From Candidatus Oxydemutatoraceae bacterium (GTDB lineage Bacteria; Pseudomonadota; Gammaproteobacteria; Poriferisulfidales; Oxydemutatoraceae), in contig CBDCOZ010000003.1 in the NCBI GenBank assembly GCA_965220085.1, forward strand, positions 1,792,001 to 1,856,000: DNA of 64,000 bases, written 5' to 3'. The translations under genes and the position numbers were made by a program. How positions within the stretch are numbered: position 1 is the first letter of the stretch; each line of letters starts with the position of its first letter. This document shows positions 21,745 to 64,000 of this stretch, piece after piece. The notes beneath the pieces were generated by a model. The model saw only the letters and a list, made by a program, of their open reading frames with translations. It was not told the origin of the DNA and did no database searches.

Positions 21745-24700
21745 TTATCGCAACGGGCCTTCAAGGAAGAGCCGCAAGCGGAGTTTGAGCGCCGGTTCGG
21801 GCGGCTCTGTGCCGTCGTCGTCGGTCGGGTCGTTCAAAACCTCTATTGTCATCTCCAGATCATCGGATGCCACGGCGTCTTTTGTCGCCCGCACGATTAC
21901 CGTGTGGGCGGTTGATGCCTCGTAATCTAGCGCACCCGCCACGGTCACCTCGCCGCTATCGGGGTCAATCGCGAACAAACCGTTCGGGGCGCTCGCTAGG
22001 CTCCAAGTCATTCCGCTTACCGCGCGATTGCCCTCATCGCGCACCGTCAGCGTGATGCCGGTCACCGCCGTGCCGGTCGCCGCATTCTCAACAACCGTAT
22101 TGGTCGTGGCATTGCTGTCGGCAATCGCCAGACTCTCCAGCACATTGATCACGCGTATCCTCAGCGGCATGGTAACGGGCTCATAACCGGCGGCTGCGGC
22201 TGTTACCGTTACGCTATGGCTGTGCGCGGTTTCGTAGTCCAGCGCGCCGCTCGCAATCAAAGTGATGATGCCGCCGCCGGCGCTTATGGCGAACAAGTCG
22301 GGGTCGTTCGGGTCGCCCAAACTCCACGTCACACTGCCTACGGTAGCGCCGCCGACAACCTGTGCCGCCAGCGCCACGCCCGCTATCGCCGTGCCCGACG
22401 TTGCGTCCTCCGCTATCGTCGCCGTGTAGGCGACCTGTGGCGACGGGGTCTCGTCAATATCGATTACGGCAATGATTACGTCTATTGTGGCGCTGACAGC
22501 GCCCGTTGAGGCGCGCGCCGTTATCGTATGCGTCGGCGTTGTCTCATAATCCAATTCGCCCGCCAACGTGACCACGCCGCTATCGGGGGCAATCGCAAAC
22601 AGGCCTCCCGCGTCATCGCTCAGCCCCCATATAAAGTCTGTGCCGCCGGTCAGAGGCAGACCGTCTTCGTGCGCTCGCAGGGCGATGCCCGGCACCGCCG
22701 TGCCGACCGGCGCATCCTCGGCAAGCTCTATCGCGCCGTTGCCGCTGTTTGCTACTGTCAGCGCCTCCGCCACATTCAAAACGCTTATCGTCAGCGCCAA
22801 GTCATTCGATACCACGGCGCCCGCCACAGCCCGCACCGTCACGCTATGGGTCGGCGCGCTCTCGTAATCTAACGCGCCCGCCACGATGAGTAGCGCGCTG
22901 TTAGCGGAGCTGATTGCAAACAAGCCGGCCGGGGCGCTCGCTACGCTCCATGTCACGGCAGTCACCGGCATGCCCATCTCATCGCGGGCTTGCAGTGTGA
23001 TGCCGGTCACCGCCGTGCCGGTCGCCGCATTCTCAACAACCGTATTGGTCGTGGCATCGCTATCGACTATCGTCAATGCATCCGGCGCATCCAAAATATT
23101 TATCGTCAGCGCCAAGTCATTCGATACCACGGCGCCCGCCACAGCCCGCACCGTCACGCTATGGGTCGGCGTACTCTCGTGATCTAACGCGCCCGCCGCC
23201 GTTATCTCACCGCTAACCGGGTCAATCGCGAACAGGTCGGCGGCGGTATCTGTCATCTCCCATGCGAAGCCCGCGCCGCTAGTCAGGGGCAGACTGCCTT
23301 CGTGCGCTCGCAGGGCGATGCCAGTCACCGCTGTGCCGGGCGGCGCATTCTCGGCGATGGCGTTGGCATCCGTATCGCTATCAACAATCGTCAAACTCTC
23401 CGCTACATTTCGCACCTCTATCGGCAGATCGAGCGCGACGATGCTGCCGTCGGCGGCGATGGCGACCGCCGTTACGCCATGGCTCGCAGCCGCTTCGTAA
23501 TCCGGCGCACGGTCGGTCGCGGTTTTGATAACGCCGGTGGCGGCGGCAATCGCAAACAAGCCGTCGGCATCGTCGGTCAGTATCCATGCGATGCCGCTTA
23601 GCGGGTTGCCGTCTCGTGTCGCCGCCAGCATTATTCCGCTGACTATCGTGTCCGTACTGTTCTCGGCGATGGCGTTGGGGGCTGGATCAGCATCGCTTAC
23701 GGTCGGCGGGACAATCGTCTCATCAAAGTCGGTCACCATGATGGTCAGCGGCAATGGGTCGGACCGTATGCCGCTTGCCGTGGCCCGCGCCTCTGCCGTG
23801 TGGGCGGTCGATGTCTCGTAATCCAAGGTGTTTGAGGCGCTCAGCCTGATAGCGCCGTCGGCATCTATCGCGAACAGGCCGGGCGGAGCGCTCGCTATGC
23901 TCCAGGTCACGGCGCTCACCGCATCACCCGCTTCATCGAGGGCTTGCAAGGCGATGCCGGTTACCGGCATGTTCGCCACCGCATTCTCGGCGATGGCATT
24001 GGCGGCGGTATCGCTATCAATAATCGTCAAGGGCTCCGGCGCATTCAAAATGTTTATCGTCAGGGTCAGGGTGTCGACAACGGCGCCGGTTGATGCCCGC
24101 GCCTCTATCGTGTGGCTCGTTGCCGTCTCATAATCCAATGCGCCCGCCGCCGTTACTTCGCCGCCGGTGGTAATCGAAAACAGACCGCCGGCATCGTCGC
24201 TCAAGCTCCAGAGGAAGTCTTCGCCGGCAGTCAGAGGCAAACTGCCTTCGTGCGCTTGCAGATTGATGCCGGTCACCGCCGTGCCGATTGCGGAATTCTC
24301 GGCGATGGTGTTGGCGCTCGTATCGCTATCAATAATCGTCAAGCTCTCCGGCACATTCCCAACCGCTATGGTCAGGGTCAGGTCATCGGATACCACGGCG
24401 CCCGCCACAGCCCGCACCGTCACGCTATGGGTCGGCGTGCTCTCGTAATCCAATGCGCCCGCCGCCGTTACTTCGCCGCCGGTGGTAATCGCAAACAGAC
24501 CGCCGGCATCGTCGCTCAATCTCCAGAGGAAACCTTCGCCGGCAGTCAGAGGCAGACCGTCTTCGTGCGCTCGCAGGGCGATGCCGGTTGCCGCCGTGCC
24601 GGGCGGCGCATTCTCGGCGATGGCGTTGGCATCCGTATCGCTATCAACAATCGTCAAACTCTCCGCTACATTTCGCACCTCTATCGGCAGATCGAGCGCG

Positions 24701-27700
24701 ACGATGCTGCCGTCGGCGGCGATGGCGACCGCCGTTACGCCATGGCTCGCAGCCGCTTCGTAATCCGGCGCACGGTCGGTCGCGGTTTTGATAACGCCGG
24801 TGGCGGCGGCAATCGCAAACAAGCCGTCGGCATCGTCGGTCAGTATCCATGCGATGCCGCTTAGCGGGTTGCCGTCTCGTGTCGCCGCCAGCATTATTCC
24901 GCTGACTATCGTGTCCGTACTGTTCTCGGCGATGGCGTTGGGGGCTGGATCAGCATCGCTTACGGTCGGCGGGACAATCGTCTCATCAAAGTCGGTCACC
25001 ATGATGGTCAGCGGCAATGGGTCGGACCGTATGCCGCTTGCCGTGGCCCGCGCCTCTGCCGTGTGGGCGGTCGATGTCTCGTAATCCAAGGTGTTTGAGG
25101 CGCTCAGCCTGATAGCGCCGTCGGCATCTATCGCGAACAGGCCGGGCGGAGCGCTCGCTATGCTCCAGGTCACGGCGCTCACCGCATCACCCGCTTCATC
25201 GAGGGCTTGCAAGGCGATGCCGGTTACCGGCATGTTCGCCACCGCATTCTCGGCGATGGCATTGGCGGCGGTATCGCTATCAATAATCGTCAAGGGCTCC
25301 GCTACATTGGTTACGACGATAGTCAGGTTTGGCTCGTTTGAGTCTATGCCGTCCTTTGTCGCTCGCACCGTAACCGGGTGTTGCGTTGATGCCTCGTAGT
25401 TCAATTCGCCCTCTGTGGTAATCGCGCCGGTGTTACTCGTGATTGCAAACAGGCCGCCCGCATCATCGGTCAGATTCCATTCCACTCCGCTTACCGCATT
25501 GCCGCCCTCGTCGGTCGCCGTCAGAGTGATGCCCGGCACCATGGTGCCGGTTGTCGCATTCTCGGCAATCTCTATCGCGCCGATGCCAGCATTCGCTATC
25601 GTCAATGTCTCCAGTACATTCAGTATATTTATTGTCAGTGTTACTACGGCAGGCTGATAACCGGCGGTTTCGGCGGTTACCGTTACGCTATGGCTGCGCG
25701 CGGTTTCGTAGTCCAGCGTGTCGCTCGCAACCAAAGTGATTGCGCCGTCGGCGCTGTCTATTGCAAACAAATCGGGGTGCGCCGGATCGGTCAGGCTCCA
25801 TGTCACTCCGGTCACCGAAGCGCCGCCGGGGTCTTGTGCCGCCAGCGTCACATCCGCTATCGCCGTACCCGTCGTTGCGTTCTCGGCTATCGTCGCCGTG
25901 TTGGCATCGCCCGTCGCATCGGCGTCCGTAATCCGCAACTGCGGCAGGCTCTCGTCAATATCCGTTACGGCGATGGCGAGGGTTAATTGATTCGAATCTA
26001 TGCCGTCCTTTGTCGCTTGCGCCACAACCGCGTGTTGCGTTGCCGCCTCGTAGTTCAATTCGCCCGCTACGGCAATCACGCCGGTGTTACTCGTGATTGC
26101 AAACAGGCCGCCCGCATCATCGGTCAGGCTCCATTCCACTCCGCTTACCGCAGCGCCGCCTTCGTCGCTCGCCGTCAGAGCGATGCCCGGCACCGCCGCG
26201 CCGACCGGCGCATTCTCGGCAAGCTCTATCGCATCAGCGTCGGCATTCGCTATCGTCAATGTCTCCGGCACATTCTCAACCGCTATCGTCAGCGCTAGCG
26301 TGTTCACGACAGTGCCGGTTGAGGCTTGTGCCGTTATCGTGTGGCTCTGTGCCGTCTCAAAATCCAACGCAGCCGCCACCCTCACCTCACCGCCGATGGT
26401 AATTGAAAACAGGCCGCCGGCATCATCGGTCAGGCTCCATTCCACTCCGCTTACCGCAGCGCCGCCCTCATCGCTCGCCGTCAGAGCGATGCCCGGCACC
26501 ACGGCGCCGACCGGCGCATTCTCGGCGATGGCATTGTCGCCGGCATTGCCATCGGCAATCGTCAAGCTCTCCGGCGCATTGGTTACGCCTACGCTGATTA
26601 CGCCGATGCTCAGGCTCAATATGTTTGAGTCTATGCCGTCCTTTGTCGCTTGCGCCATGACCGCGTGTTGCGTTGCTGCCTCGTAGTTCAATTCGCCCGC
26701 TACGGCAATCACGCCGGTGTTACTCGTGATTGCAAACAAGTTGCCCGCATCATCGGTCAGGCTCCATTCCGCTCCGCTTATGAGATTGCCGCCTTCATCG
26801 CTCGCCGTCAGAGCGATGCCCGGCACCACCGCGCCGACCGGCGCATTCTCGGCAATCTCTATCGCGCCGCTGCCGCCGTTCGCTATCGTCAAAGCCTCCA
26901 GCACATTCTCTACTCGCACTTCCGCTTCAATCTCTGCGCTCACCCCTCCCAGCGTCGCGCGCACTCTCAATCTATGCTCGCGGGCCGTCTCGTAGTCCAG
27001 CGCCGCTGCCACAGCGATGACACCGCTGCTCCCATCTATCGCAAACAGACCGCCCGCGTTATTCGGCAGGCTCCAAATCACGCTCAGGCGAGCGCCATCG
27101 GCGCCTCTTGCGACCAACTCCAGACCCGATACCGCCGTGCCGGTCGCCGCCGACTCCGATACCCTCGCCAGATTGTCATTGTCCGTTATGTCAACAATCG
27201 CAATGTCCTCGTTGATGTCTCCCACGCTGATAACCAGACTCGCTATGTTTGAATGGATGCCCTCTTTTGAAACTCGCACGGTCACCGTGTGTTGCGATGA
27301 TGCCTCGTAGTCCAATGAATTCGCGGCAACCAACCTGATAATGCCGGCGCTGTCCACAGAAAACAAACCATTCGGGTTATCGATCAGACTCCAGACCAGA
27401 CCGCTCGTCACCGCAACATTCGCTTCGTCCTTTGCCTCCAGCGATATGCCCAACACCCGACTGCCGGCGCCCGCGTTCTCGGCGATAGTGTTGGCATCTG
27501 CGTTTCTGTCTCTGACCGTCAGCGTCTCCGGCACATTCTCCACCGCTATCGTCAGCGACAGAGTCGCTACCGCGGTGGCCGTTGAAGCTCGCGCCTCTAT
27601 CGCATGGCTCGTATCCGTCTCGTAATCCAATGCGCCCGCCACCGTCACTTCGCCGCCGGTCGTAATCGCAAAGCGACCGCCGGCATCATTGCTCAGGCTC

Positions 27701-30700
27701 CATTCCGCTCCGCTTATGAGATTGCCGCCTTCATCGCTTGCCGTCAGAGCGATGCCCGCTACCACGGCGCCGACCGGCGCATTCTCGGCGACGGTATTGT
27801 CGGTAGTGTCGCTGTCCGTAATCGTCAGCGTCTCCGGCACATTCTCCACCGCTATCGTCAGCGACAGAGTCGCTACCGCGGTGGCCGTTGAAGCTCGCGC
27901 CTCTATCGCATGGCTCGTATCCGTCTCGTAATCCAATGCGCCCGCCACCGTCACTTCGCCGCCGGTCGTAATCGCAAAGCGCCCGCCGGCATCATTGCTC
28001 AGGCTCCATTCCGCTCCGCTTATGAGATTGCCGCCTTCATCGCTTGCCGTCAGAGCGATGCCCGCTACCACGGCGCCGACCGGCGCATTCTCGGCGACGG
28101 TATTGTCGGTAATGTCGCTGTCCGTAATCGTCAGCGTCTCCGGCACATTCTCCACCGCTATCGTCAGCGACAGAGTCGCTACCGCGGTGGCCGTTGAAGC
28201 TCGCGCCTCTATCGCATGGCTCGTATCCGTCTCGTAATCCAATGCGCCCGCCACCGTCACTTCGCCGCCGGTCGTAATCGCAAAGCGACCGCCGGCATCA
28301 TTGCTCAGGCTCCATTCCGCTCCGCTTATGAGATTGCCGCCTTCATCGCTTGCCGTCAGAGCGATGCCCGCTACCACGGCGCCGACCGGCGCATTCTCGG
28401 CGACGGTATTGTCGGTAGTGTCGCTGTCCGTAATCGTCAGCGTCTCCGGCACATTCTCCACCGCTATCGTCAGCGACAGAGTCGCTACCGCGGTGGCCGT
28501 TGAAGCTCGCGCCTCTATCGCATGGCTCGTATCCGTCTCGTAATCCAATGCGCCCGCCACCGTCACTTCGCCGCCGGTCGTAATCGCAAAGCGCCCGCCG
28601 GCATCATTGCTCAGGCTCCATTCCGCTCCGCTTATGAGATTGCCGCCTTCATCGCTTGCCGTCAGAGCGATGCCCGCTACCACGGCGCCGACCGGCGCAT
28701 TCTCGGCGACGGTATTGTCGGTAATGTCGCTGTCCGTAATCGTCAGCGTCTCCGGCACATTCTCCACCGCTATCGTCAGCGACAGAGTCGCTACCGCGGT
28801 GGCCGTTGAAGCTCGCGCCTCTATCGCATGGCTCGTATCCGTCTCGTAATCCAATGCGCCCGCCACCGTCACTTCGCCGCCGGTCGTAATCGCAAAGCGA
28901 CCGCCGGCATCATTGCTCAGGCTCCATTCCGCTCCGCTTATGAGATTGCCGCCTTCATCGCTTGCCGTCAGAGCGATGCCCGCTACCACGGCGCCGACCG
29001 GCGCATTCTCGGCGACGGTATTGTCGGTAGTGTCGCTGTCCGTAATCGTCAGCGTCTCCGGCACATTCTCCACCGCTATCGTCAGCGACAGAGTCGCTAC
29101 CGCGGTGGCCGTCGAAGCTCGCGCCTCTATCGCATGGCTCGTATCCGTCTCGTAATCCAATGCGCCCGCCACCGTCACTTCGCCGCCGGTCGTAATCGCA
29201 AAGCGCCCGCCGGCATCATTGCTCAGGCTCCATTCCGCTCCGCTTATGAGATTGCCGCCTTCATCGCTTGCCGTCAGAGCGATGCCCGCTACCACGGCGC
29301 CGACCGGCGCATTCTCGGCGATGGTATTGTCGGTAGTGTCGCTGTCCGTAATCGTCAGCGTCTCCGGCACATTCTCCACCGCTATCGTCAGCGACAGAGT
29401 CGCTACCGCGGTGGCCGTCGAAGCTCGCGCCTCTATCGCATGGCTCGTATCCGTCTCGTAATCCAATGCGCCCGCCACCGTCACTTCGCCGCCGGTCGTA
29501 ATCGCAAAGCGCCCGCCGGCATCATTGCTCAGGCTCCATTCCGCTCCGCTTATGAGATTGCCGCCTTCATCGCTCGCCGTCAGAGCGATGCCCGCTACCA
29601 CGGCGCCGACCGGCGCATTCTCGGCGACGGTATTGTCGGTAGTGTCGCTGTCCGTAATCGTCAGCGTCTCCGGCACATTCTCCACCGCTATCGTCAGCGA
29701 CAGAGTCGCTACCGCGGTGGCCGTTGAAGCTCGCGCCTCTATCGCATGGCTCGTATCCGTCTCGTAATCCAATGCGCCCGCCACCGTCACTTCGCCGCCG
29801 GTCGTAATCGCAAAGCGCCCGCCGGCATCATTGCTCAGGCTCCATTCCGCTCCGCTTATGAGATTGCCGCCTTCATCGCTCGCCGTCAGAGCGATGCCCG
29901 GCACCACCGCGCCGACCGGCGCATTCTCGGCAATCTCTATCGCGCCGCTGCCGCCGTTCGCTATCGTCAAAGCCTCCAGCACATTCTCTACTCGCACTTC
30001 CGCTTCAATCTCTGCGCTCACCCCTCCCAGCGTCGCGCGCACTCTCAATCTATGCTCGCGGGCCGTCTCGTAGTCCAGCGCCGCTGCCACAGCGATGACA
30101 CCGCTGCTCCCATCTATCGCAAACAGACCGCCCGCGTTATTCGGCAGGCTCCAAATCACGCTCAGGCGAGCGCCATCGGCGCCTCTTGCGACCAACTCCA
30201 GACCCGATACCGCCGTGCCGGTCGCCGCCGACTCCGATACCCTCGCCAGATTGTCATTGTCCGTTATGTCAACAATCGCAATGTCCTCGTTGATGTCTCC
30301 CACGCTGATAACCAGACTCGCTATGTTTGAATGGATGCCCTCTTTTGAAACTCGCACGGTCACCGTGTGTTGCGATGATGCCTCGTAGTCCAATGAATTC
30401 GCGGCAACCAACCTGATAATGCCGGCGCTGTCCACAGAAAACAAACCATTCGGGTTATCGATCAGACTCCAGACCAGACCGCTCGTCACCGCAACATTCG
30501 CTTCGTCCTTTGCCTCCAGCGATATGCCCAACACCCGACTGCCGGCGCCCGCGTTCTCGGCGATAGTGTTGGCATCTGCGTTTCTGTCTCTGACCGTCAG
30601 CGTCTCCGGCACATTCTCCACCGCTATCGTCAGCGACAGAGTCGCTACCGCGGTGGCCGTCGAAGCTCGCGCCTCTATCGCATGGCTCGTATCCGTCTCG

Positions 30701-33700
30701 TAATCCAATGCGCCCGCCACCGTCACTTCGCCGCCGGTCGTAATCGCAAAGCGCCCGCCGGCATCATTGCTCAGGCTCCATTCCACCCCGCTTATGAGAT
30801 TGCCGCCTTCATCGCTTGCCGTCAGAGCGATGCCCGGCACCACTGTGCCGACCGGCGCATTCTCGGCGATGGTATTATCGCCGGTATCGCTATCGGCAAT
30901 CGTCAGGGTCTCCGGCGCATTAGGCGCGCCCACATTGGTTACGCCGATGCTCAGGCTCAATATGTTTGAGTCTATGCCGTCCTTTGTCGCTTGCGCCATG
31001 ACCGCGTGTTGCGTTGCTGCCTCGTAGTTCAATGCGCCCTCTAAGGTAATCACGCCGGTGTTACTCGTGATTGCAAACAGGCCGCCCGCGTCATCGGTCA
31101 GGCTCCATTCCGCTCCGCTTACCGCATTGCCACTCTCGTCGCTCGTCGTCAGAGCAATGCCCGGCACCGCCGTGCCGGTTGTCGCATTCTCGGCAAGCTC
31201 TATCGCGCCGTTGCCGCCGTTCGCTATCGTCAAAGTCTCCAGTACGTTCAATACATTGATTGTCAGCGTCACCCCCGACGAAGCATAACCGCTCGCCATG
31301 GCGGTTACCGTTACGGCGTGTCGCGTTGATGCTTCGTAGTTCAGTGTGTTGTCCGCAGCCAAAGTGATGGCGCCGTCGGCGCTGTCTATTGCAAACAGGC
31401 CGCTCGGGTCGGTCAGACTCCAGGTCGCACTGCTCACGGCAACGCCGGCGGGGTCTTGTGCCGCCAATGTCACGCCCGCTATCGCCGTATCCGCCGTCGC
31501 GTTCTCGGCTATCGTCGCCGTGTTGGCATCGCCCGTCGTATCGGTGTCTATAATCCGCAACTGTGGCAGGGTATCGTCAATATCCGCTTCGGCAATGGTC
31601 AGGCCCAGGCCGATTGAAATCACGCCGTCTTTAGCGGCCCGCGCTACCACCGCGTAGTGATTAGGCAGTGTCTCGTAATCCAATGAGCCCGAAGCGATGA
31701 GGCTGATCACGCCGCTGGCGCTGTCTATTGCAAATAAACCGCTTGCATAGGGCAGGCTCCAGGTCACTCCGCTTACCGCAGCGCCGCCCTCGTCGCTCAC
31801 CGTCAGAGCGATGCCCGGCACCACCGCGCCGGCTGTCGCATTCTCGGCAATCGCTATCGCGCCGCTGCCTCTGTTCGCTATCCTCAACTCCTCCAGCACA
31901 TTCAATACATTTATTGTCAGCTCCAGCGCGCCCGTTATATAACCGTCGGCTTCGGCGGTCACCGTTACGGTGTGTCGCGTTGATGTTTCGTAGTCCAGCG
32001 TGTTGTCCGCAATCAAAGTGATGACACCGCTGGCGCTGCTTATTTCGAACAAGTCTTCCGCATCGATCAGGCCCCATGTCACATCGCTTACGACATTGCC
32101 ATCGGGGTCTCGCACCTCCGGCATCACACCCGTTGCCGCAACGCCCGCCGTTGCGTTCTCGGCTATCGTCGCCGTATTGACATCGCCCGTCGCATCGGTA
32201 TCGGTTATCCTCAACACATCGACGCTAATCGTTGCGGAACGGGCTGCCTCGCCGCCGTGAATGACCGCCGCGACATGATAGGCGTATCTGGCGCCCGCGG
32301 TGATGCTGTCGTCAACATAGATTGTGTTCGTTGACGGTGTTCCGGCAGTGTCATTCGCCAGCGCCGCCTCGTCGCGGTAGATGTGGTATGTAATAATCGG
32401 GGGCGGGTCCCATTCCGGCGGTATCGGCGGCGCGGTCCAAGCCAATGCCGCATGCCCGCCGATCCCAAATGCAATCAGGTCTCGCGGGCCTTCGCGCAGT
32501 TGGAAACCGAACTCTTGCCAGGTCGGCTCGCCGTCGCCGTTAAAGTCAACCTTCAGCGCCGGGTATTGCGAGGCGGCGCCGAAATCCCAGCGTTCGTTGG
32601 CGGTCGGGTTCCAGTTCGCATAGATATCGGCGCGCGTCGTCGGCGCCTGTAACTCGGCGGTCGCATGACCGCTGATGCCGGCGATGGCGATGCCGTTGCC
32701 GGCGGCATTGTCCTTGCGCGATGTCTCGGTATCCCAGACGACGGCGGTTGCGTCAATGCCGACATAAGCGCCGATGACGCCGCCGCCGTTCTCGTCGGCG
32801 GGCGCGATCCGGGCGGTGGAATAACTGCGGCGTATCGGGACAGATGTCCGACTGTTTGTGCCAAGCAAGCCGCCGGAGGCGGGCATCGCGCCATCCGATG
32901 CATCGACATAACCGGTGGCGTAAGAATCTTCCAGAAAGGAACCACCCCTTCCGTCCAGATTGCCAATCAGACCGCCGGCCCAATTGGTAGTGACCTGTGC
33001 TGCGGCGCCGTCGCCATACACACGCGCTCTGCCGGTGGCATAACTCGCGACCACTTCAAGACCGCGCCCGAAGCCGACCAGAGAACCGACTTCGTTGCCG
33101 CCCTCTATCCTGACCGCCGACCAACTGTTCTCAATCCGCGCGCGAAGACCGCCTTGTCCGTTCATCAAACCCGCTATGCCGCCAATCCGGTTCGCATTGG
33201 TGCCGCTGGCAGGAACCGAAGCGCCACTGCCCGAAGTTATTGAGCCGGTTACGCCGAGGTTGGAAACACATCCTTTGTCACACGCACCGGCGGCGCCGTC
33301 GGTTCCCCCTGAAATTCCGCCAAATAAGCCGGCATTACCGCGCCCGGCGATATCGTTCTGGAACAAGTTATAAATCGTGTGACCATTGCCCTCAAGCTTT
33401 CCGCCCCATCGGGCAAACGCATCGCCAATGGGCTGAAAGCCTTCTATGGGCCCGCCGCGATCCGCGTCTGTGTAGTACGGGAGGACTATGCCGCCGCCGT
33501 AACTGGCCGGATCGGTGAAATCCAAATCCTTTGTCAATTCATAGCCGAGGCATTCGCCGGCCCCGCCCGGACAACTGCTCTGGTTGTTGCCGAACTCTCT
33601 TGACCACACACGATAAGAGGAGGAATCATCTTTGCTCAGGCCCGTCCCCGCAGGGTCAAAGCGCATTACATTGAGTTGCTCCACCGTTGTGATGTCTATC

Positions 33701-33873
33701 AGACCGTCGTCGTCAATGTCGTAGTCTCTCGGCGCTTGCGCGACCGCGGATGTGTGAAAGAATGAGACTGCGAGCGCCAGAATCAGCGCGCCCGTTTTCG
33801 GCAACAGGCAGAGGAATCCGGAGAGGGCATGGAATATGCGCCTTGCGCGGTTGATTTTAGCCATTACTTGCAT
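21745..33873 (-). CDS. Giant secreted cadherin-repeat adhesin B (4042 aa): signal peptide, one GLUG/FN3 head, ~33 cadherin-like repeats, C-terminal LKLRLRLFLEGPLR
   Basis: ORF 21745..34053. Start moved to the ATG at 33873 (MQVMAKINRARR...TSAVA|QAPRDYDIDDDGLI) because it aligns with gene A's start and has GGAG upstream. Shows GNGHTI.NL and GGLIG repeats, an FN3-like LAWTAP..YHIYRD..YHVAAV segment and LDYE cadherin motifs. Confidence 0.92.
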   Translation of the reverse strand: MQVMAKINRARRIFHALSGFLCLLPKTGALILALAVSFFHTSAVAQAPRDYDIDDDGLIDITTVEQLNVMRFDPAGTGLSKDDSSSYRVWSREFGNNQSSCPGGAGECLGYELTKDLDFTDPASYGGGIVLPYYTDADRGGPIEGFQPIGDAFARWGGKLEGNGHTIYNLFQNDIAGRGNAGLFGGISGGTDGAAGACDKGCVSNLGVTGSITSGSGASVPASGTNANRIGGIAGLMNGQGGLRARIENSWSAVRIEGGNEVGSLVGFGRGLEVVASYATGRARVYGDGAAAQVTTNWAGGLIGNLDGRGGSFLEDSYATGYVDASDGAMPASGGLLGTNSRTSVPIRRSYSTARIAPADENGGGVIGAYVGIDATAVVWDTETSRKDNAAGNGIAIAGISGHATAELQAPTTRADIYANWNPTANERWDFGAASQYPALKVDFNGDGEPTWQEFGFQLREGPRDLIAFGIGGHAALAWTAPPIPPEWDPPPIITYHIYRDEAALANDTAGTPSTNTIYVDDSITAGARYAYHVAAVIHGGEAARSATISVDVLRITDTDATGDVNTATIAENATAGVAATGVMPEVRDPDGNVVSDVTWGLIDAEDLFEISSASGVITLIADNTLDYETSTRHTVTVTAEADGYITGALELTINVLNVLEELRIANRGSGAIAIAENATAGAVVPGIALTVSDEGGAAVSGVTWSLPYASGLFAIDSASGVISLIASGSLDYETLPNHYAVVARAAKDGVISIGLGLTIAEADIDDTLPQLRIIDTDTTGDANTATIAENATADTAIAGVTLAAQDPAGVAVSSATWSLTDPSGLFAIDSADGAITLAADNTLNYEASTRHAVTVTAMASGYASSGVTLTINVLNVLETLTIANGGNGAIELAENATTGTAVPGIALTTSDESGNAVSGAEWSLTDDAGGLFAITSNTGVITLEGALNYEAATQHAVMAQATKDGIDSNILSLSIGVTNVGAPNAPETLTIADSDTGDNTIAENAPVGTVVPGIALTASDEGGNLISGVEWSLSNDAGGRFAITTGGEVTVAGALDYETDTSHAIEARASTATAVATLSLTIAVENVPETLTVRDRNADANTIAENAGAGSRVLGISLEAKDEANVAVTSGLVWSLIDNPNGLFSVDSAGIIRLVAANSLDYEASSQHTVTVRVSKEGIHSNIASLVISVGDINEDIAIVDITDNDNLARVSESAATGTAVSGLELVARGADGARLSVIWSLPNNAGGLFAIDGSSGVIAVAAALDYETAREHRLRVRATLGGVSAEIEAEVRVENVLEALTIANGGSGAIEIAENAPVGAVVPGIALTASDEGGNLISGAEWSLSNDAGGRFAITTGGEVTVAGALDYETDTSHAIEARASTATAVATLSLTIAVENVPETLTITDSDTTDNTVAENAPVGAVVAGIALTASDEGGNLISGAEWSLSNDAGGRFAITTGGEVTVAGALDYETDTSHAIEARASTATAVATLSLTIAVENVPETLTITDSDTTDNTIAENAPVGAVVAGIALTASDEGGNLISGAEWSLSNDAGGRFAITTGGEVTVAGALDYETDTSHAIEARASTATAVATLSLTIAVENVPETLTITDSDTTDNTVAENAPVGAVVAGIALTASDEGGNLISGAEWSLSNDAGGRFAITTGGEVTVAGALDYETDTSHAIEARASTATAVATLSLTIAVENVPETLTITDSDITDNTVAENAPVGAVVAGIALTASDEGGNLISGAEWSLSNDAGGRFAITTGGEVTVAGALDYETDTSHAIEARASTATAVATLSLTIAVENVPETLTITDSDTTDNTVAENAPVGAVVAGIALTASDEGGNLISGAEWSLSNDAGGRFAITTGGEVTVAGALDYETDTSHAIEARASTATAVATLSLTIAVENVPETLTITDSDITDNTVAENAPVGAVVAGIALTASDEGGNLISGAEWSLSNDAGGRFAITTGGEVTVAGALDYETDTSHAIEARASTATAVATLSLTIAVENVPETLTITDSDTTDNTVAENAPVGAVVAGIALTASDEGGNLISGAEWSLSNDAGGRFAITTGGEVTVAGALDYETDTSHAIEARASTATAVATLSLTIAVENVPETLTVRDRNADANTIAENAGAGSRVLGISLEAKDEANVAVTSGLVWSLIDNPNGLFSVDSAGIIRLVAANSLDYEASSQHTVTVRVSKEGIHSNIASLVISVGDINEDIAIVDITDNDNLARVSESAATGTAVSGLELVARGADGARLSVIWSLPNNAGGLFAIDGSSGVIAVAAALDYETAREHRLRVRATLGGVSAEIEAEVRVENVLEALTIANGGSGAIEIAENAPVGAVVPGIALTASDEGGNLISGAEWSLTDDAGNLFAITSNTGVIAVAGELNYEAATQHAVMAQATKDGIDSNILSLSIGVISVGVTNAPESLTIADGNAGDNAIAENAPVGAVVPGIALTASDEGGAAVSGVEWSLTDDAGGLFSITIGGEVRVAAALDFETAQSHTITAQASTGTVVNTLALTIAVENVPETLTIANADADAIELAENAPVGAAVPGIALTASDEGGAAVSGVEWSLTDDAGGLFAITSNTGVIAVAGELNYEAATQHAVVAQATKDGIDSNQLTLAIAVTDIDESLPQLRITDADATGDANTATIAENATTGTAIADVTLAAQDPGGASVTGVTWSLTDPAHPDLFAIDSADGAITLVASDTLDYETARSHSVTVTAETAGYQPAVVTLTINILNVLETLTIANAGIGAIEIAENATTGTMVPGITLTATDEGGNAVSGVEWNLTDDAGGLFAITSNTGAITTEGELNYEASTQHPVTVRATKDGIDSNEPNLTIVVTNVAEPLTIIDSDTAANAIAENAVANMPVTGIALQALDEAGDAVSAVTWSIASAPPGLFAIDADGAIRLSASNTLDYETSTAHTAEARATASGIRSDPLPLTIMVTDFDETIVPPTVSDADPAPNAIAENSTDTIVSGIMLAATRDGNPLSGIAWILTDDADGLFAIAAATGVIKTATDRAPDYEAAASHGVTAVAIAADGSIVALDLPIEVRNVAESLTIVDSDTDANAIAENAPPGTAATGIALRAHEDGLPLTAGEGFLWRLSDDAGGLFAITTGGEVTAAGALDYESTPTHSVTVRAVAGAVVSDDLTLTIAVGNVPESLTIIDSDTSANTIAENSAIGTAVTGINLQAHEGSLPLTAGEDFLWSLSDDAGGLFSITTGGEVTAAGALDYETATSHTIEARASTGAVVDTLTLTINILNAPEPLTIIDSDTAANAIAENAVANMPVTGIALQALDEAGDAVSAVTWSIASAPPGLFAIDADGAIRLSASNTLDYETSTAHTAEARATASGIRSDPLPLTIMVTDFDETIVPPTVSDADPAPNAIAENSTDTIVSGIMLAATRDGNPLSGIAWILTDDADGLFAIAAATGVIKTATDRAPDYEAAASHGVTAVAIAADGSIVALDLPIEVRNVAESLTIVDSDTDANAIAENAPPGTAVTGIALRAHEGSLPLTSGAGFAWEMTDTAADLFAIDPVSGEITAAGALDHESTPTHSVTVRAVAGAVVSNDLALTINILDAPDALTIVDSDATTNTVVENAATGTAVTGITLQARDEMGMPVTAVTWSVASAPAGLFAISSANSALLIVAGALDYESAPTHSVTVRAVAGAVVSNDLALTISVLNVAEALTVANSGNGAIELAEDAPVGTAVPGIALRAHEDGLPLTGGTDFIWGLSDDAGGLFAIAPDSGVVTLAGELDYETTPTHTITARASTGAVSATIDVIIAVIDIDETPSPQVAYTATIAEDATSGTAIAGVALAAQVVGGATVGSVTWSLGDPNDPDLFAISAGGGIITLIASGALDYETAHSHSVTVTAAAAGYEPVTMPLRIRVINVLESLAIADSNATTNTVVENAATGTAVTGITLTVRDEGNRAVSGMTWSLASAPNGLFAIDPDSGEVTVAGALDYEASTAHTVIVRATKDAVASDDLEMTIEVLNDPTDDDGTEPPEPALKLRLRLFLEGPLR
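23298..25300. repeat. Near-identical ~740-bp block duplicated at 1263-bp offset
   Basis: 23298-24040 matches 24561-25300; shadow ORFs at 23381/24644 and 23525/24788 are identical. Confidence 0.9.
26757..30783. repeat. About 8 tandem 306-bp repeats (27520-29900) bracketed by a ~950-bp block duplicated at 3078-bp offset
   Basis: The unit recurs at 27604, 27910, 28216, 28522, 28828, 29134, 29440 and 29746. 26757-27705 matches 29835-30783. Confidence 0.92.
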
Positions 33874-34161
33874 GAAATTTCCGGACACTTTCTCCCTGCC
33901 CCTCGGGGGGCGAACGGCTATGCTGATGATGATGGTGATGATGACGATTTTCTCCCCGCCCCTTCGGGGGGCGAACACTGCGACGATGCAATGGGAGTCA
34001 TTGTACCTTGATTTGTGGCGGAAGGCGCATGGAGCATTGAGCGAACACTGCAACGACGCAATGGAATCCGTTGTGCTTCAGAGCGAGGAAAGCGGCTCAC
34101 ATCGGCATATTCCGTATGGCTATCCGACTGACTCCACAGCCCTTCTCCCTGCGGGAGAGTA
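33874..34161 (-). promoter_or_regulatory. Conserved spacer/leader of adhesin B, with an internal direct repeat and a TACAAT -10-like box
   Basis: 'gcgaacactgc(g/a)acga(t/c)gcaatgg' occurs at 33971 and 34041. A homologous 'gcaacgatgcaata..ttattgtacct' lies upstream of gene A (21037-21066). On the minus strand both genes have AGGTACAAT. Confidence 0.5.
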
Positions 34162-37100
34162 TTATCGCAGGGGGCCTTCCAGGAAGAGGCGCAGACGCAA
34201 CCTCAGCACGCTGGCTGCCTCTTGCACAGTTATTGTCAGCGACAATTCGTTTGAGTCTATGCCGTCCTTGCTCGCCTGCGCCCTGACCGTGTGTTGCGTT
34301 GCCGCCGCGTAGTCCAATGCGCCCTCTGCGGTTATCACGCCGCTGTTACTCGTGATGGCAAACAAGCTGCCTGCGTCATCGGTCAGCATCCATTCCGCTC
34401 CGGTTATCACCTCGTCATTCTCGGTCGCTACCAGATTGATGCCCGGCACTACGGTGCCGGCGGGCGCATTCTCGGCCAGTTCTATCGCACCGCTGCCGCC
34501 GTTTGCTATCGTCAATGTCTCCAGCACATTCAATACATTGATTGTCAGTTCCAGCGTCGCTGTCATAAAACCGGCGGCGGCGGCGGTTACCGTTACGCTA
34601 TGGTTGCGCGCACCTATGTCTTCGTAGTCCAGCGTGTCGCTCGCTGCCAAAGTGATGACACCGCTGGTACTGCCTATCGCGAACAAGCTGCTCGGATCGG
34701 TCAGGCTCCAGGTCGCACTACTTACGGCAGTGCCATCGGTATCTTGTGCCGCCAATGTCACACCTGCTATCGCCGTGCCCGCCGTCGCATCCTCCGCTAT
34801 CGTCGCCGTGTTGGCAGCGCCTGTCGTATCGGTGTCCGCAATCTGCAACTGCGGCAGGGTCTCGTCAATATCTGTTACGGCGATGGTCAGGGTTAGTTGA
34901 TTCGAATCTATGCCGTCTTTGCTCGCCTGCGCCGTGACCGTGTGTTGCGTTGCCGCCGCGTAGTCCAATGCGCCCTCTGCGGTTATCACGCCGGTGTTGC
35001 TCGTGATGGCAAACAAGCTATCCGCGTCATCGGTCAGGCTCCATGTCAGGTCGGTTACCGGACGACCGCCTTCATCGCTCGCCGTCAGAGCAATGCCCGG
35101 CACCACGGTGCCGACGGGCGCATTCTCGGCCAGTTCTATCGCACCGCTGCCGCCGTTTGCTATCGTCAATGTCTCCAGCACATTCTCCACAGTTACCGTT
35201 ATTGAGAATGCGACCGAAGTCACTCCGTCTTTCGCGGCTTGCGCCATTAATGTGTGGCTCTCCCCGCCAGCCGCTTCAAAATTCAATGCGCCAGCCACCG
35301 TCACTTCGCCGCCGGTGCTAATCGCAAACAGGCCGCCCGCGTTATCAGGCAGACTCCATGTCAGGTCGGTTACCGGACGACCGCCTTCGTCGCTCACTGT
35401 CAGAGCAATGCCCGGCACCACGGTGCCGACGGGCGCATTCTCGGCCAGTTCTATCGCACCGCTGCCGCCGTTTGCTATCGTCAATGTCTCCAGCACATTC
35501 TCCACAGTTACCGTTATTGAGAATGCGACCGAAGTCACTCCGTCTTTCGCGGCTTGCGCCATTAATGTGTGGCTCTCCCCGCCAGCCGCTTCAAAATTCA
35601 ATGCGCCAGCCACCGTCACTTCGCCGCCGGTGCTAATCGCAAACAGGCCGCCAGCGTTATCAGGCAGACTCCATGTCAGGTCGGTTACCGGACGACCGCC
35701 TTCGTCGCTCACTGTCAGAGCAATGCCCGGCACCACGGTGCCGGCGGGCGCATTCTCGGCCAGTTCTATCGCACCGCTGCCGCCGTTTGCTATCGTCAAT
35801 GTCTCCAGCACATTCTCCACAGTTACCGTTATTGAGAATGCGACCGAAGTCACGCCGTCTTTCGTGGCTTGCGCCATTAATGTGTGGCTCTCCCCGCCAG
35901 CCGCTTCAAAATTCAATGCGCCAGCCACCGTCACTTCGCCGCCGGTGCTAATCGCAAACAGGCCGCCCGCGTTATCAGGCAGACTCCATGTCAGGTCGGT
36001 TACCGGACGACCGCCTTCGTCGCTCACTGTCAGAGCAATGCCCGGCACCACGGTGCCGGCGGGCGCATTCTCGGCCAGTTCTATCGCACCGCTGCCGCCG
36101 TTTGCTATCGTCAATGTCTCCAGCACATTCTCCACAGTTACCGTTATTGAGAATGCGACCGAAGTCACTCCGTCTTTCGCGGCTTGCGCCATTAATGTGT
36201 GGCTCTCCCCGCCAGCCGCTTCAAAATTCAATGCGCCAGCCACCGTCACTTCGCCGCCGGTGCTAATCGCAAACAGGCCGCCCGCGTTATCAGGCAGACT
36301 CCATGTCAGGTCGGTTACCGGACGACCGCCTTCGTCGCTCGCCGTCAGAGCAATGCCCGGCACCACGGTGCCGGCGGGCGCATTCTCGGCCAGTTCTATC
36401 GCACCGCTGCCGCCGTTTGCTATCGTCAATGTCTCCAGCACATTCTCCACAGTTACCGTTATTGAGAATGCGACCGAAGTCACTCCGTCTTTCGCGGCTT
36501 GCGCCATTAATGTGTGGCTCTCCCCGCCAGCCGCTTCAAAATTCAATGCGCCAGCCACCGTCACTTCGCCGCCAGTGCTAATCGCAAACAGGCCGCCAGC
36601 GTTATCAGGCAGACTCCATGTCAGGTCGGTTACCGGACGACCGCCTTCGTCGCTCACTGTCAGAGCAATGCCCGGCACCACGGTGCCGGCGGGCGCATTC
36701 TCGGCCAGTTCTATCGCACCGCTGCCGCCGTTTGCTATCGTCAATGTCTCCAGCACATTCTCCACAGTTACCGTTATTGAGAATGCGACCGAAGTCACTC
36801 CGTCTTTCGCGGCTTGCGCCATTAATGTGTGGCTCTCGCCGCCAACCGCTTCAAAATTCAATGCGCCAGCCACCGTCACTTCGCCGCCAGTGCTAATCGC
36901 AAACAGGCCGCCAGCGTTATCAGGCAGACTCCATGTCAGGTCGGTTACCGGACGACCGCCTTCGTCGCTCACTGTCAGAGCAATGCCCGGCACCACGGTG
37001 CCGACGGGCGCATTCTCGGCCAGTTCTATCGCACCGCTGCCGCCGTTTGCTATCGTCAATGTCTCCAGCACATTCTCCACAGTTATCGTTATTGAGAATG

Positions 37101-46155: not shown

Positions 46156-46470
46156 GAAAAATGCCTCCTTGGCATAGCAACTTGAAGTTAATCAAGTTGT
46201 CTAAAATTATTTATTCTTACTAAATGTTTTTCTTAAGTTAGTTATGTATCCCTAAACAAAGAGGAAACATACTACCATATTATTAACATATTATGCACAC
46301 ATTATTAACATCTTACTAATAAGTTACTTATCTGCTTGTTTTTACTATGTTTTTTCCCTGATTAGCCATGTTCCAAGGCTAAATCCGGCCAGTAGCAAGG
46401 CAGTGCCTCATATTTCGGTCATATGCTATATTGAGGCGGTTTCAAACCACAATAAATACCTCAGATACGC
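46156..46470. promoter_or_regulatory. AT-rich divergent promoter region with a palindrome and a direct repeat
   Basis: CAACTTGA-N6-TCAAGTTG at 46178-46199; ATTATTAACAT at 46279 and 46301. Confidence 0.55.
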
Positions 46471-46476
46471 TTGACC

Positions 46477-47770: not shown

Positions 47771-47776
47771 TGCAAC

Positions 47777-61710: not shown

Positions 61711-61792
61711 GTTTACTCCTCCAAACCTTATGACTAAGTGGAATACGATTATAAGTTAACCAAGAGCGCGACCAAATAAAATGTGTGGAAGC

Positions 61793-61951
61793 TTACTTGT
61801 CTTTCTTAGAAAGCTTTGCGGCGGCTTCAATCACTTTATTTTGCTCTCTGATGGATTTGTCAATAATCTTTTTGAATGCCTTGTTTTGCTCTCCGGCGCT
61901 TGCCCGCATAAACCTGGAAAAAGAGTTCCCGTCTTTGTCTTTTTTCGCCAT
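61793..61951 (-). CDS. Small basic helical hypothetical protein (52 aa)
   Basis: MAKKDKDGNSFSRFMRASAGEQNKAFKKIIDKSIREQNK; GGGA upstream and a promoter-like sequence nearby. Confidence 0.55.
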   Translation of the reverse strand: MAKKDKDGNSFSRFMRASAGEQNKAFKKIIDKSIREQNKVIEAAAKLSKKDK

Positions 61952-61985
61952 TTTGATATCCCGTAAATTTAACAATTGAAACTGT

Positions 61986-62013
61986 ATTCTAGCCAAAATC
62001 CGCCCGTTGACAA
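61986..62013 (-). promoter_or_regulatory. Sigma70-like promoter for the small gene (and possibly the nuclease)
   Basis: TTGTCA, 16-nt spacer, TAGAAT. Confidence 0.45.
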
Positions 62014-62300
62014 TTAGATGTTTGATGCCATGACATACCGGACACCCGGGGCAAATATTGCGCGTGGCATGGGCGCTTGAATCTTCAGCCCCATAGCGTG
62101 GTCGTCGGATGTCAAACCATAACGGATACTTATCCGACGATCATTAAATGTCCGCAGGTCGTCAGCAACAAACCCGCTTCAAATTCCGCAGACTATTCCC
62201 GAAGAGTGCGGTTAAAGCACTCATTGGATGCATTCATTTATATCCTGTCTCACCCTTGCACACCTCATAACACCCCCTTCTCCGCCGCAGGGCGCTTGCG

Positions 62301-64000
62301 CTATCGCAGCGGGCCTTCAAGGAAGATGCGCAACCGCAGACGCAGGTCCCGTTGGCGAATGCATTCCGGGGGTTCCGGGACTTCCGAGGGGTCCGCCAAG
62401 TCTACCGTGATGACACCTCTGTTGGCGCTGGTCGCTCTGGCGCTGCCATCGGCGGCGGCGGTAGTCACGCGAAATTCAAAACTGTTGTAGCCCATGGTCG
62501 GCACGGCGTTGGCATTGGGGGCGAAGCAGATGCCGCCTGCGCCTGCGAAGTCTCCTGTGGCGTCTAGGGGTACGGGGGTCCCCGAACCTGAGAGGCTTCG
62601 TGCCAAGCCGTCTTCTCCCAGCGGGACCCCAAATCCTTCGGTGCCGATCTCAGGATACACGGTCAATTCCACAAGGTTGTCGCCGTCCTCATCGCTAAAG
62701 GTGAAGTCGCACGGGCTGAAGCAGTGGGGGTTAGAGTTGTCTGCGGACGAAGGCACAAAAACTCTGTTGTTCAGAGCCATCGGCGCATCGTTGACATTGC
62801 GCACCCGGGCGACGGCGGAACACAGCGGCCCCTCTTCGGCGGGGGTTGCGTGCTCGTCCATAAAAGAGACGCAGACGCGGATGTACAACCCCACATGGGC
62901 CTGCAATGGAGTAAATGTGCGGCTGGTGGCGCCGGCTATGGCGGCGTAGGCATCGGCGGCCGGAGCGCCGCTGGCCGGGGCCGGGGCGGACTGCCACTGC
63001 CATTGCAGCGTACTCTGATTTATGACATTGGGTTCCACTATGCTGGCGGTGTTGGCAGTCAATTCGGTGTCTTCGGCGTGGGTGGGGTTCTGAGCGCTGG
63101 TGGCCGGGGTGATGCCGGACGCGCCGGTAGCTTTAATCTGTTGGTCGGTGAACAGATTGATGGTGAGGGTGTAGGCATCCACAGATCTTCTGTCGGAGCC
63201 CGTGCCGGTGTCCTCTATCCTATAGTCGAAGCTGTCGTAGTTATTCCGTGCCGAGGCGCCGGGATTCGGATAGTATGCCAGGGCGTTGAGTTCGGTCAGG
63301 GTCAGTTGGCTGCTGGCGGTCAGGGTCCGGGTCTCGCCCGCCACCACCAGAGTGCCCGCCGTCGGCAGACTGGCCAAGCGTATGCCCTTGAGGGTGTCGC
63401 CATCTTCGTCGGTGATGGGAAAGTCGTTTATGTCAAAGTCGTGCGGATTAGCGGCGTTGGCGGTGATGGGCACATCCACGGCGGTGTCGCGGCCCTCCGG
63501 CGCATCGCTGACATTGGCTATGATGTTGCCGTCGGTGCATCGCATCTCGCTGGCCGGGGTGGGATGCAGATCCCTGAAAGAGGCGCAGACGCGAATGTAT
63601 GTCCCCACATCTGCCTGCCGGGGAGTGAATCTGGCAGAGGTAGCGCCGCTGATGGCGGCGTAGGCATTGGCGGCCGGGGCGCCGCTGGCCGGGGCCGGGG
63701 CCGATTGCCATTGCCAGCGCAGGGTGCCGGTGTTTATGACATTGTTGTCGGCTATGGCGCCGATGGCGGCGGTGATGGTCACATCCTCGTTCCAGACTGT
63801 GGTGCCGGCGGCGGCGGACACTGCGGGCTTGCCGGTGGCGGCCTCCTGAGTGGGATTGAACAGATGGATGGTCATGGTGCCCCGCGCGATGTTGGCGGGA
63901 GTTCCTGCGGCGGTGACATAGAAGAAGAATGTGTCGTAGTTGCGCGTCTGCGCCTGGCCCGTGGGCGGATAGTAGCTGATGGTGGATATGGCATTTGCGG
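62301..64000 (-). CDS. 3' part of surface protein D (Ig/cadherin-like repeats of a different type), ending DLRLRLRIFLEGPLR; 5'-truncated by the window edge
   Basis: The frame stays open from 63875 to 64000 (ANAISTISYYPPTGQAQTRNYDTFFFYV...). It has repeated WQWQSAPAP..YAAI.GAT...FTP.QA.VG.YIRVC and NV(S/N)DAP...DEDGD units. Confidence 0.88.
   Translation of the reverse strand, partial: ANAISTISYYPPTGQAQTRNYDTFFFYVTAAGTPANIARGTMTIHLFNPTQEAATGKPAVSAAAGTTVWNEDVTITAAIGAIADNNVINTGTLRWQWQSAPAPASGAPAANAYAAISGATSARFTPRQADVGTYIRVCASFRDLHPTPASEMRCTDGNIIANVSDAPEGRDTAVDVPITANAANPHDFDINDFPITDEDGDTLKGIRLASLPTAGTLVVAGETRTLTASSQLTLTELNALAYYPNPGASARNNYDSFDYRIEDTGTGSDRRSVDAYTLTINLFTDQQIKATGASGITPATSAQNPTHAEDTELTANTASIVEPNVINQSTLQWQWQSAPAPASGAPAADAYAAIAGATSRTFTPLQAHVGLYIRVCVSFMDEHATPAEEGPLCSAVARVRNVNDAPMALNNRVFVPSSADNSNPHCFSPCDFTFSDEDGDNLVELTVYPEIGTEGFGVPLGEDGLARSLSGSGTPVPLDATGDFAGAGGICFAPNANAVPTMGYNSFEFRVTTAAADGSARATSANRGVITVDLADPSEVPEPPECIRQRDLRLRLRIFLEGPLR

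Follow-up and report, generated by a model that had tools for sequence, protein, structure and literature searches.

The 64,000-nucleotide (nt) stretch analysed here (the window) covers positions 1,792,001 to 1,856,000 of contig CBDCOZ010000003.1 (C3) from a Candidatus Oxydemutatoraceae bacterium, whose genome, G000, comprises 2,492,841 bases in 3 contigs with a GC content of 55-56%. Three genes on the minus strand of the window, B, C and D, end alike in a short peptide, LRLR[LI]FLEGPLR-stop, which we call the tail. The initial annotation of this DNA, made from the sequence alone, had proposed the tail as a new secretion or sorting signal. Translation confirms it at the ends of all three genes, with codons that differ at synonymous sites. 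The tails, which belong to a set of 215 copies in the genome, and the genes around them are as follows.

21748-21789, minus strand: tail LKLRLRLFLEGPLR of gene B (C-terminus ...EPPEPALKLRLRLFLEGPLR, stop codon 21745-21747)
34165-34206, minus strand: tail LRLRLRLFLEGPLR of gene C (C-terminus ...QEAASVLRLRLRLFLEGPLR, stop codon 34162-34164)
62304-62345, minus strand: tail LRLRLRIFLEGPLR of gene D (C-terminus ...CIRQRDLRLRLRIFLEGPLR, stop codon 62301-62303)
1-21096, minus strand: 5′ part of gene A (whole gene 14,212 amino acids, aa), from the list of open reading frames (ORFs)
21147-21190, minus strand: decayed tail-like remnant between genes A and B, with no stop (...EPAPKPCPRLFPEAPRQYL / ...PCPRLFPEAPRQ... 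/ ...PCPRLFPEAPRQYL), from translation and DNA alignment with the three tails
21745-34053, minus strand: gene B, giant cadherin-repeat protein of 4102 aa counted from the first TTG (ORF list)
34162-46155, minus strand: gene C, 3997 aa, giant cadherin-repeat protein whose N-terminus is signal-peptide-like (ORF list, Pfam)
62301-64000, minus strand: gene D, 675 aa, continuing beyond the window end to C3:1856328 (ORF list)

The Pfam family Cadherin (PF00028) matches the first 1000 aa (E 7e-21) and the last 999 aa (E 3.5e-63) of gene B, and Cadherin likewise matches the last 999 residues of gene C (E 1.9e-53). The true start of gene B likely lies near 33873 (MQVMAKINRARR...), followed by a signal-peptide-like stretch. 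Gene A also bears the tail (...VLRLRLRLFLEGPLR-stop at C3:1770458, beyond the window), and gene D, which gives just one weak ZirU-like match against NCBIfam, is the last in a tandem of four tail-bearing genes. The Sec-type signal peptides earlier assigned to A, B and C are supported by eye and by a crude heuristic, each of the three N-termini running from a basic N-region through a hydrophobic core to an AQA-type end. The decayed copy reported between A and B stands less firmly. Its reading is tail-like and matches the tail of gene B at ~10 of 17 positions by eye, but that it is a tail remnant is plausible, not proven.

Conservation of the tail across the genome

In a six-frame scan of G000, 215 frames end in F[LIVM]EG[PA]LR-stop. 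ORFs of 186 to 15,193 aa account for 180 of them and short fragments for the other 35; the tail ORFs sum to 159,595 codons and take up 19% of the genome. This number is far above what chance would give: 214 matches were obtained with a DNA pattern for FLEGP[LF]R-stop, versus 0 with the reversed control. The earlier description of the carriers as giant surface proteins fits A, B and C in size, and the giant tail-ending ORFs reach 15,193, 13,236, 9,776 and 14,212 aa (C3:1442649-1488230, 1344695-1384405, 1400132-1429462 and 1770458-1813096, respectively), but most carriers measure 240-950 aa. Their bodies match Cadherin, Cadherin_4/Big_9, He_PIG or no family (Pfam and NCBIfam searches of ten whole carriers, and of B and C), so that the motif does sit on different protein bodies. 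At a coverage of at least 60%, the carriers form 21 groups, the two largest having 111 and 41 members.

Over the last ten residues of the 215 copies, codon positions 1 and 2 are invariant (2.0 bits) and third positions carry 0.57-1.77 bits. The residues F, E and G, as well as the final Arg, are each present in 215 of 215 copies, and the stop is TAG in 136, TAA in 51 and TGA in 28. Past the stop, conservation is weak and limited to two codons (consensus CGC GAG). Because third positions vary while positions 1 and 2 are invariant, and because all three stops are used, the conservation of the tail is, judging from these sequences, selection on the peptide and not on the DNA, in agreement with the initial annotation. 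On the same grounds, and with nothing conserved beyond about two codons, we rejected a nucleotide-level element such as a repetitive extragenic palindrome, a terminator or a recombination site.

A further possibility is that the tail has no function as a peptide, and that the conserved 3′ end together with the signal-peptide 5′ end of the genes allows cassette shuffling or gene conversion between genes for surface proteins as a source of variation. Such a recombination handle would fit the 35 short tail fragments, the duplicated 3′ flanks and the membership of the carriers in large paralogous groups. Tandem arrays of three short tail-ending ORF fragments lie downstream of full-length tail genes at C3:513720-514160 and C3:908934-909314, with spacings of ~156 and ~168 nt, which suggests that the 3′ ends of genes are often duplicated or recombined. 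A handle in the DNA does not explain, however, why third codon positions are free while the first and second are invariant, why three stops are used, or why conservation ends two codons past the stop. In addition, other genera encode the same peptide with quite different codons, as in the tails IRVRVKVFLEGPLR-stop and LLRVKLFLEGPFR-stop. We consider this explanation highly improbable.

Signal-peptide-like N-termini are over-represented among the carriers: they occur in 100 of 166 tail ORFs, compared with 307 of 1269 other ORFs, according to a crude heuristic and with an enrichment that is overstated because paralogues are not independent. The tail itself matches no existing model. No Pfam-A or NCBIfam model covers it in ten whole carriers, and neither database returned a match at E≤10 for four 30-aa tails. 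The known C-terminal sorting signals (PEP-CTERM, GlyGly-CTERM, LPXTG and the C-terminal domain, CTD, of the type IX secretion system, T9SS) offer no curated model for a tail that ends ...EGPLR without a hydrophobic segment. The aromatic last residue of the outer-membrane-protein β-signal is likewise absent, the tail ending in Arg throughout G000 and in Q, P or R in relatives. A full-text literature search for the motif strings returned nothing relevant to the tail, and further searches on Porisulfidus and on dockerins with a donor strand or a sponge symbiont yielded, in the portions available, nothing on the tail or on a split X-dockerin.

The tail as the first strand of a C-terminal module

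The initial annotation had pointed to a similar KVFLEGP strand at the beginning of a larger C-terminal domain in some secreted proteins of Bacteroidota. This domain, here called the module, is found in thousands of proteins. A profile search of 1.84 billion representative proteins returned 15,020 relatives at E≤1e-3, of which 9,441 remain at E≤1e-10, so the family has at least 15,020 representative members. In its fused form the module consists of the first strand (KVFLEGP), then DWVLVELR, HRNHL and a dockerin-like part. No Pfam-A or NCBIfam model describes it; the Atlas clusters nearest to it, which are unnamed, occur most often in Bacteroidota and Ignavibacteriota, a lead only, but one in agreement with the initial annotation. 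The size of this family, which resembles X-dockerin and has no model, suggests that dockerin-type anchoring may be far more widespread outside cellulosomes than is annotated.

The best 150 of the 15,020 relatives read ...LKVFLEGPFNGT.M.T.LN...PL.QPY...DWVLVELR. In a regular-expression census of these 150, a strand-like motif stands upstream of the DWVLVELR core in 94 long and 11 short proteins, with ...LDLKVFLEGPFNGT.MNT.LN as a typical reading; two of the 11 short proteins are matches inside the signal peptide, as judged by eye. A signal peptide and no strand are found in 32 short proteins. Three long proteins missed by the expression read VNLEGAW, VKIEGAV and VNLEGPF, and the rest either have no core motif (7) or are N-terminally truncated (3).

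When the tail profile was compared with the module alignment by hhalign, it was placed on the first-strand columns (probability 75.9%, E 2.3e-5, 16 columns). The LRLFLEGP of the tails also agrees with the first-strand pattern of the module, h-[KR]-h-[FY]-L-[EQ]-G-[PA]. Based on this placement and on the strand motif of the fused relatives, the tail is, in sequence terms, the first β-strand of the module plus the following turn. The remainder of the module (M..L..P..PY, DWVLVELR, HRNH and the Ca-loop part) is missing from the tail proteins, the stop falling two residues past GP in the 215 frames. Since the stop comes right after the tail and G000 has no fused copy, the tail proteins carry a fragment of the module and not the module itself.

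We modeled a fused relative, P0091, with AlphaFold2 using a 60-row alignment (A6), and obtained a predicted local distance difference test score (pLDDT) of 96.2 and a predicted template modeling score (pTM) of 0.92. The first strand in this model spans residues 5-10, the ...NIK part of NIKAFLEGPF, and precedes FLEGP. In a Foldseek search of the PDB, 8 of 8 matches at E≤1e-3 were X-module-type II dockerin (XDoc) chains of cellulosomal scaffoldins; the best, 4u3s_B, has E 1.8e-5, probability 1.00, TMq 0.46 and TMt 0.61, values that apply to the model of the fused relative and not to a G000 protein. According to this modeling, the likeness of the module to XDoc is at the fold level only.

A single strand-less module in G000

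It had also been suggested that the tail may be a lone donor strand that docks into a separately encoded acceptor. A tblastn search with a protein of the related 'Ca. Porisulfidus' found one candidate in G000 (E 1.3e-20); a strand-less module exists in this genome in exactly one copy.

C3:469169-470134: candidate acceptor, 322 aa, signal peptide followed by the module body (tblastn, profile)

This protein is the only G000 match to the module profile (E≤1), and it belongs to no Pfam or NCBIfam family. It contains the invariant residues (D105, W106, H194, R195, N196 and H197) and does not contain the first strand. Its sequence after the signal peptide is QRS-MNTGLSDFIPADDPYC..., i.e., the segment that follows the strand (alignment A2). 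The tail end and the acceptor start, P-(LR|QRS)-M, together give 5 residues from Pro to Met, matching the common fused form P-FNGTD-M, a count that assumes signal-peptide cleavage after ANA as judged by eye.

We then predicted how the last 40 residues of gene B (alignment A4, in which the tail of B is the first row) would pair with the mature acceptor (residues 29-320, alignment A5). The interface score ipSAE was 0.84, 0.82 and 0.84 in three runs, and 0.00 in the best of 3 controls; the ipSAE mark used is reached by 58 of 80 solved complexes and by 2 of 110 mismatched pairs. At least 90% of the contacts are shared between the runs, and the partner pLDDT is at least 59. In the model, tail residues 24-40 contact acceptor residues 30-35, 104-111, 127-139, 170-175, 190-197 and 208-219, and the residue pairs with the lowest error map next to the homologues of canonical strands 95-97 and 139-143. 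The prediction is consistent with the proposed docking of the tail into the acceptor.

Tail and module in related genomes

The comparison took in 18 further genomes from the family as well as 22 from the three other families of the order. The DNA pattern for FLEGP[LF]R-stop has 15, 2, 2 and 1 matches in the genomes of one other genus of the family and none in the 36 other relatives. The stricter R-form of the pattern is absent from 400 other genomes sampled from the phylum. A search with the K/AGR-form, with one genome for each of 185,579 species, found real tails only in two 'Ca. Porisulfidus' metagenome-assembled genomes; seven other matches were dismissed as chance, five having TGG in place of the stop and two lying in ORFs of 38 and 42 codons. 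The family is therefore identified as that of Porisulfidus, which has been described as a sulfur oxidiser associated with sponges and close to SUP05. These scans beyond the family cover the R-form and K/AGR-form, as distinct from tails ending in Q, IP or VR. With the tail profile (A4, E≤0.005), tails were found in 14 of the 18 other family genomes and in 0 of the 22 genomes of the three other families.

The tail variant differs by genus. Relatives have ...FLEGPLQ-stop (36 copies in G007), ...RIRVFLEGALQ-stop, ...RIRVFLEGAVIP-stop and ...LKVFLSGVVR-stop. The terminal Arg is therefore not essential, the ends seen in relatives being ...GPLQ, ...GALQ, ...GAVIP or ...GVVR. Nor is a free C-terminal carboxylate required, since three G000 proteins carry the strand near the N-terminus, in a cassette composed of the signal peptide, NPMTVPQDVLT.AQA... 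and PLRLRLRVFLEGPLR-GGSS. Behind the cassette, two of these proteins have PPC repeats (PF04151, E 4.6e-20 and 8.2e-35), and the third has a weak Trypsin_2-like region (E 0.019, under threshold).

The Trypsin_2 match and the Arg at the motif end would suit a processing site, in which ...LEGPLR (followed by GGSG... in the internal copies) is recognised or produced by a dedicated trypsin-like protease. The genes stop exactly at the Arg, however, leaving nothing downstream to cut, and the other two proteins with an internal motif are PPC-repeat proteins and not proteases. The idea is further weakened because the terminal residue varies between genera, with Q, IP or VR at the ends of the relatives' tails. 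A protease site appears very unlikely to us.

The arrangement of the module also differs within the family. G001 has no tails and only fused modules, which close 19 giant ORFs; all 19 begin V.ARV[YVFWL]LQGA[YL], continuing with M..L..LP..QPY, DWVLVELR and HRNHL. In G015, a 'Ca. Porisulfidus' genome, an ORF of 276 aa lies ~30 nt downstream of each giant tail gene, with a signal peptide, M..D...P.QDPYC ... VVDWVLMELR ... ARKPAFLLSNGRVVD ... YLVVRHRNHLDVIS and dockerin-like loops. Across G015, G017 and G002 of this sister genus, five such pairs were found, each with a strand-less module gene of 264-276 aa located ~30 nt downstream of a giant tail gene. Overall, a free or fused module is present in 13 of the 18 other family genomes according to a single-protein search and in three more according to a profile search that covered five family genomes, and it is absent from the 22 genomes outside the family in the single-protein search. 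The module accompanies the tails in 13 of 14 genomes; the one without it, G014, is 85% complete and in 230 contigs. G008 has neither tail nor module.

The tails could in principle be inert stubs, left by deletion of the module in an ancestral gene and copied along with the expanding families. Most carriers are paralogues, as such a vestige would predict. A neutral stub would decay, however, and the tail is nearly invariant among bodies whose nearest-paralogue identity has a median of 66%; such invariance is expected if all tails fit one acceptor. Moreover, decayed copies exist and look different, and the identical truncation point is kept in several genera. We give this explanation almost no weight.

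A split domain as the proposed mechanism

We propose that a single strand-less acceptor captures the tail in trans as a donor strand and acts as an adaptor, and we put the probability of this reading at roughly 55%. It builds on what is documented above, namely that the tail is homologous to the first strand, that the module is split between genes, that many tails face one acceptor, and that tail and module co-occur. The X-module and dockerin-like domain, which many bacteria have fused to large secreted proteins, would have been split in this family of symbiotic gammaproteobacteria. The cargo proteins would retain only the strand [LIV]R[LIV]RLR[LIV]FLEGPLR, and the remainder of the domain would be made as a separate secreted protein, consisting of a signal peptide and the module from just after the missing strand. 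Binding of the tail by the acceptor, as suggested by the complex model, would most likely occur through strand complementation in trans, in which the amphipathic tail inserts into the incomplete β-sandwich of the free module. The free module might then serve as a common adaptor at the cell surface, its dockerin-like half tying the cargo to a putative surface partner. This role as adaptor or anchor and the surface location are inferred. Within the family there appears to be an evolutionary series, from the fused module (G001), to a split module with the acceptor gene adjacent (Porisulfidus), to one acceptor acting in trans for hundreds of tails (G000).

The proposed mechanism has parallels in known systems. 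In cellulosomal scaffoldins, the XDoc dyad anchors the scaffoldin to the cell surface via a type II cohesin. Like the XDoc structures (4u3s_B, 2b59_B and 3kcp_A), the module would, by the predicted fold of a fused relative, combine an Ig-like β-sandwich with a Ca-loop dockerin-like segment behind it, the two closing off the C-terminus of large extracellular proteins; at TMq 0.45-0.49 and 11-14% identity the likeness is confined to the fold. In contrast to XDoc, the first strand of the X-like module here sits on separate proteins, and the host is Gram-negative, with no cohesin above the cut-off in G000. In chaperone-usher pili (Fim/Pap), another polypeptide donates a short alternating-hydrophobic strand that completes, in trans, an Ig-like fold lacking it. 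Here, the acceptor is without its first strand in the alignment, and the complex model places the tail in the sandwich. Unlike in the pili, the missing strand is the module's first strand, and the donors would be C-terminal (three times N-terminal) tags of ~215 cargos that share one acceptor and form no polymer.

The tail resembles PEP-CTERM/exosortase, GlyGly-CTERM/rhombosortase, LPXTG/sortase and the T9SS CTD in being a compact C-terminal tag on a large, lineage-specific secreted set with a dedicated gene elsewhere. Instead of a hydrophobic helix or basic cluster, however, it is a structural strand of a domain, and no processing enzyme is implied. A genuine rhombosortase gene adjoins the acceptor region, yet the tail proteins have no GlyGly-CTERM signal. 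In engineered tags of the SpyTag/SpyCatcher type, a peptide completes a β-sandwich 'catcher'; the system here is natural, presumably non-covalent, and would have one catcher for a whole secretome.

Alternatively, the tail may descend from the first strand and now act without the free module, either as an export or retention signal that a secretion or outer-membrane machine would read or as an Arg/Leu amphipathic strand that sticks to lipopolysaccharide or the membrane. Its alternating Leu/Arg strand and the excess of signal-peptide-like N-termini among carriers would agree with such an autonomous signal, which would also avoid the stoichiometrically awkward service of ~215 cargos by a single acceptor and would accommodate G004 and G009, which have the module and few or no tails. 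It leaves unexplained, however, the strand-less module in 13 of 14 tail-bearing genomes, its position directly downstream of tail genes in Porisulfidus, and the split exactly at the strand boundary, and the tail matches no known signal model. We judge this alternative unlikely.

Several points weigh against capture of the tail by the acceptor. The acceptor alignment used for the complex included fused relatives, and the halves of a split domain are expected to pass such a prediction by likeness, so that the model may speak for fold compatibility more than for binding. One acceptor gene stands against ~215 cargo genes, which is a stoichiometry problem. If the signal peptide of the acceptor is not cleaved, its hydrophobic N-terminus could fill the groove or anchor the protein to the inner membrane. 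No cohesin was found above the cut-off in G000 (best Pfam PF00963 match E 0.056, 14.4 bits versus 24.1), where a divergent one may nevertheless be present. Dockerin_1 (PF00404) scores only 15.8 and 18.6 bits on the module, below the cut-off of 22.9, and gives no match to the G000 protein. G004 and G009 have the module and no tail at E≤0.005, G009 showing only weak ...LKVFLGGMVR-stop matches. Because related genomes are not independent samples, the co-occurrence of tail and module is essentially one family-level trait with a few informative exceptions. Finally, the initial annotation's own caveat, that the motif might occur only in recent paralogues of one gene, holds in part: the carrier bodies belong to several families, but 152 of 180 carriers fall into two paralogous groups, so that much of the tail count comes from gene-family expansion.

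In its broadest form, the proposal is that a secretome that numbers over 200 proteins and fills 19% of the genome is displayed by a non-covalent tag and catcher through one strand-less X-dockerin adaptor, a sorting principle not described before; we advance this tentatively, doubting it somewhat more than we believe it. If it is true, the split would save ~250 codons per gene in a reduced symbiont genome, and Gram-negative bacteria would have a natural split-domain display system, many-to-one, with a C-terminal sorting tag of a new kind. About a fifth of what this relative of invertebrate-associated sulfur oxidisers can encode would come under the tag. The giant cadherin-like adhesins on the surface of such symbionts are believed to mediate host contact, and a small acceptor with a 14-residue peptide would provide a handle on how symbionts organise their surface. 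The two could also form a compact natural peptide/catcher pair for protein engineering.

Neighbouring genes and further observations

The acceptor gene is followed directly by a gene for a 1369-aa protein and then by the rhombosortase gene (TIGR03902, 96 bits, cut-off 84), in a region outside the window (C3:469169-475608; L052:9170-15608). The gene for type II secretion system protein M (PF04612) lies ~3 kb upstream, and two rhodanese-like ORFs are also on the upstream side. The 1369-aa protein ends in a Gly run, a hydrophobic helix and RRQRRYE, which is GlyGly-CTERM-like. It was considered as an anchor and set aside as unsupported: its first 400 aa have no match in the 18 relatives, it aligns with the G009 neighbour at E 7e-4 over 67 aa only, and its Atlas scores (≤0.79) are uninformative. 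No link of this protein or of the rhombosortase to the tail system was found.

Both ends of the carrier genes are conserved while the bodies differ. Many carriers share a leader, M[KN]RQIFNT.P, often with a Pro run and then R.TLTRLSLRSL.LPALFVVCAQAQAQ; examples are:

62301-64000 of the window and beyond, minus strand: gene D
C3:584775-586298: a second carrier with the leader

Subsets of tails have ~30 nt of 3′ flank in common, which translates as, e.g., RE-stop-PAAEK, WETHFMYK or REQSHRKT. A small hairpin-like palindrome is visible by eye 3′ of genes B and C. In two frames the tail is read through, with Gln or Trp in place of the stop (C3:629125-629934 and C3:1859487-1859726), and the first of these continues into a CxxxxCxxC ferredoxin-like region; both are probably decayed copies or overlaps and not real fusions. 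Between genes C and D lies a complete bacterial 16S rRNA gene (56049-57607, minus strand; Rfam RF00177, 1554.9 bits).

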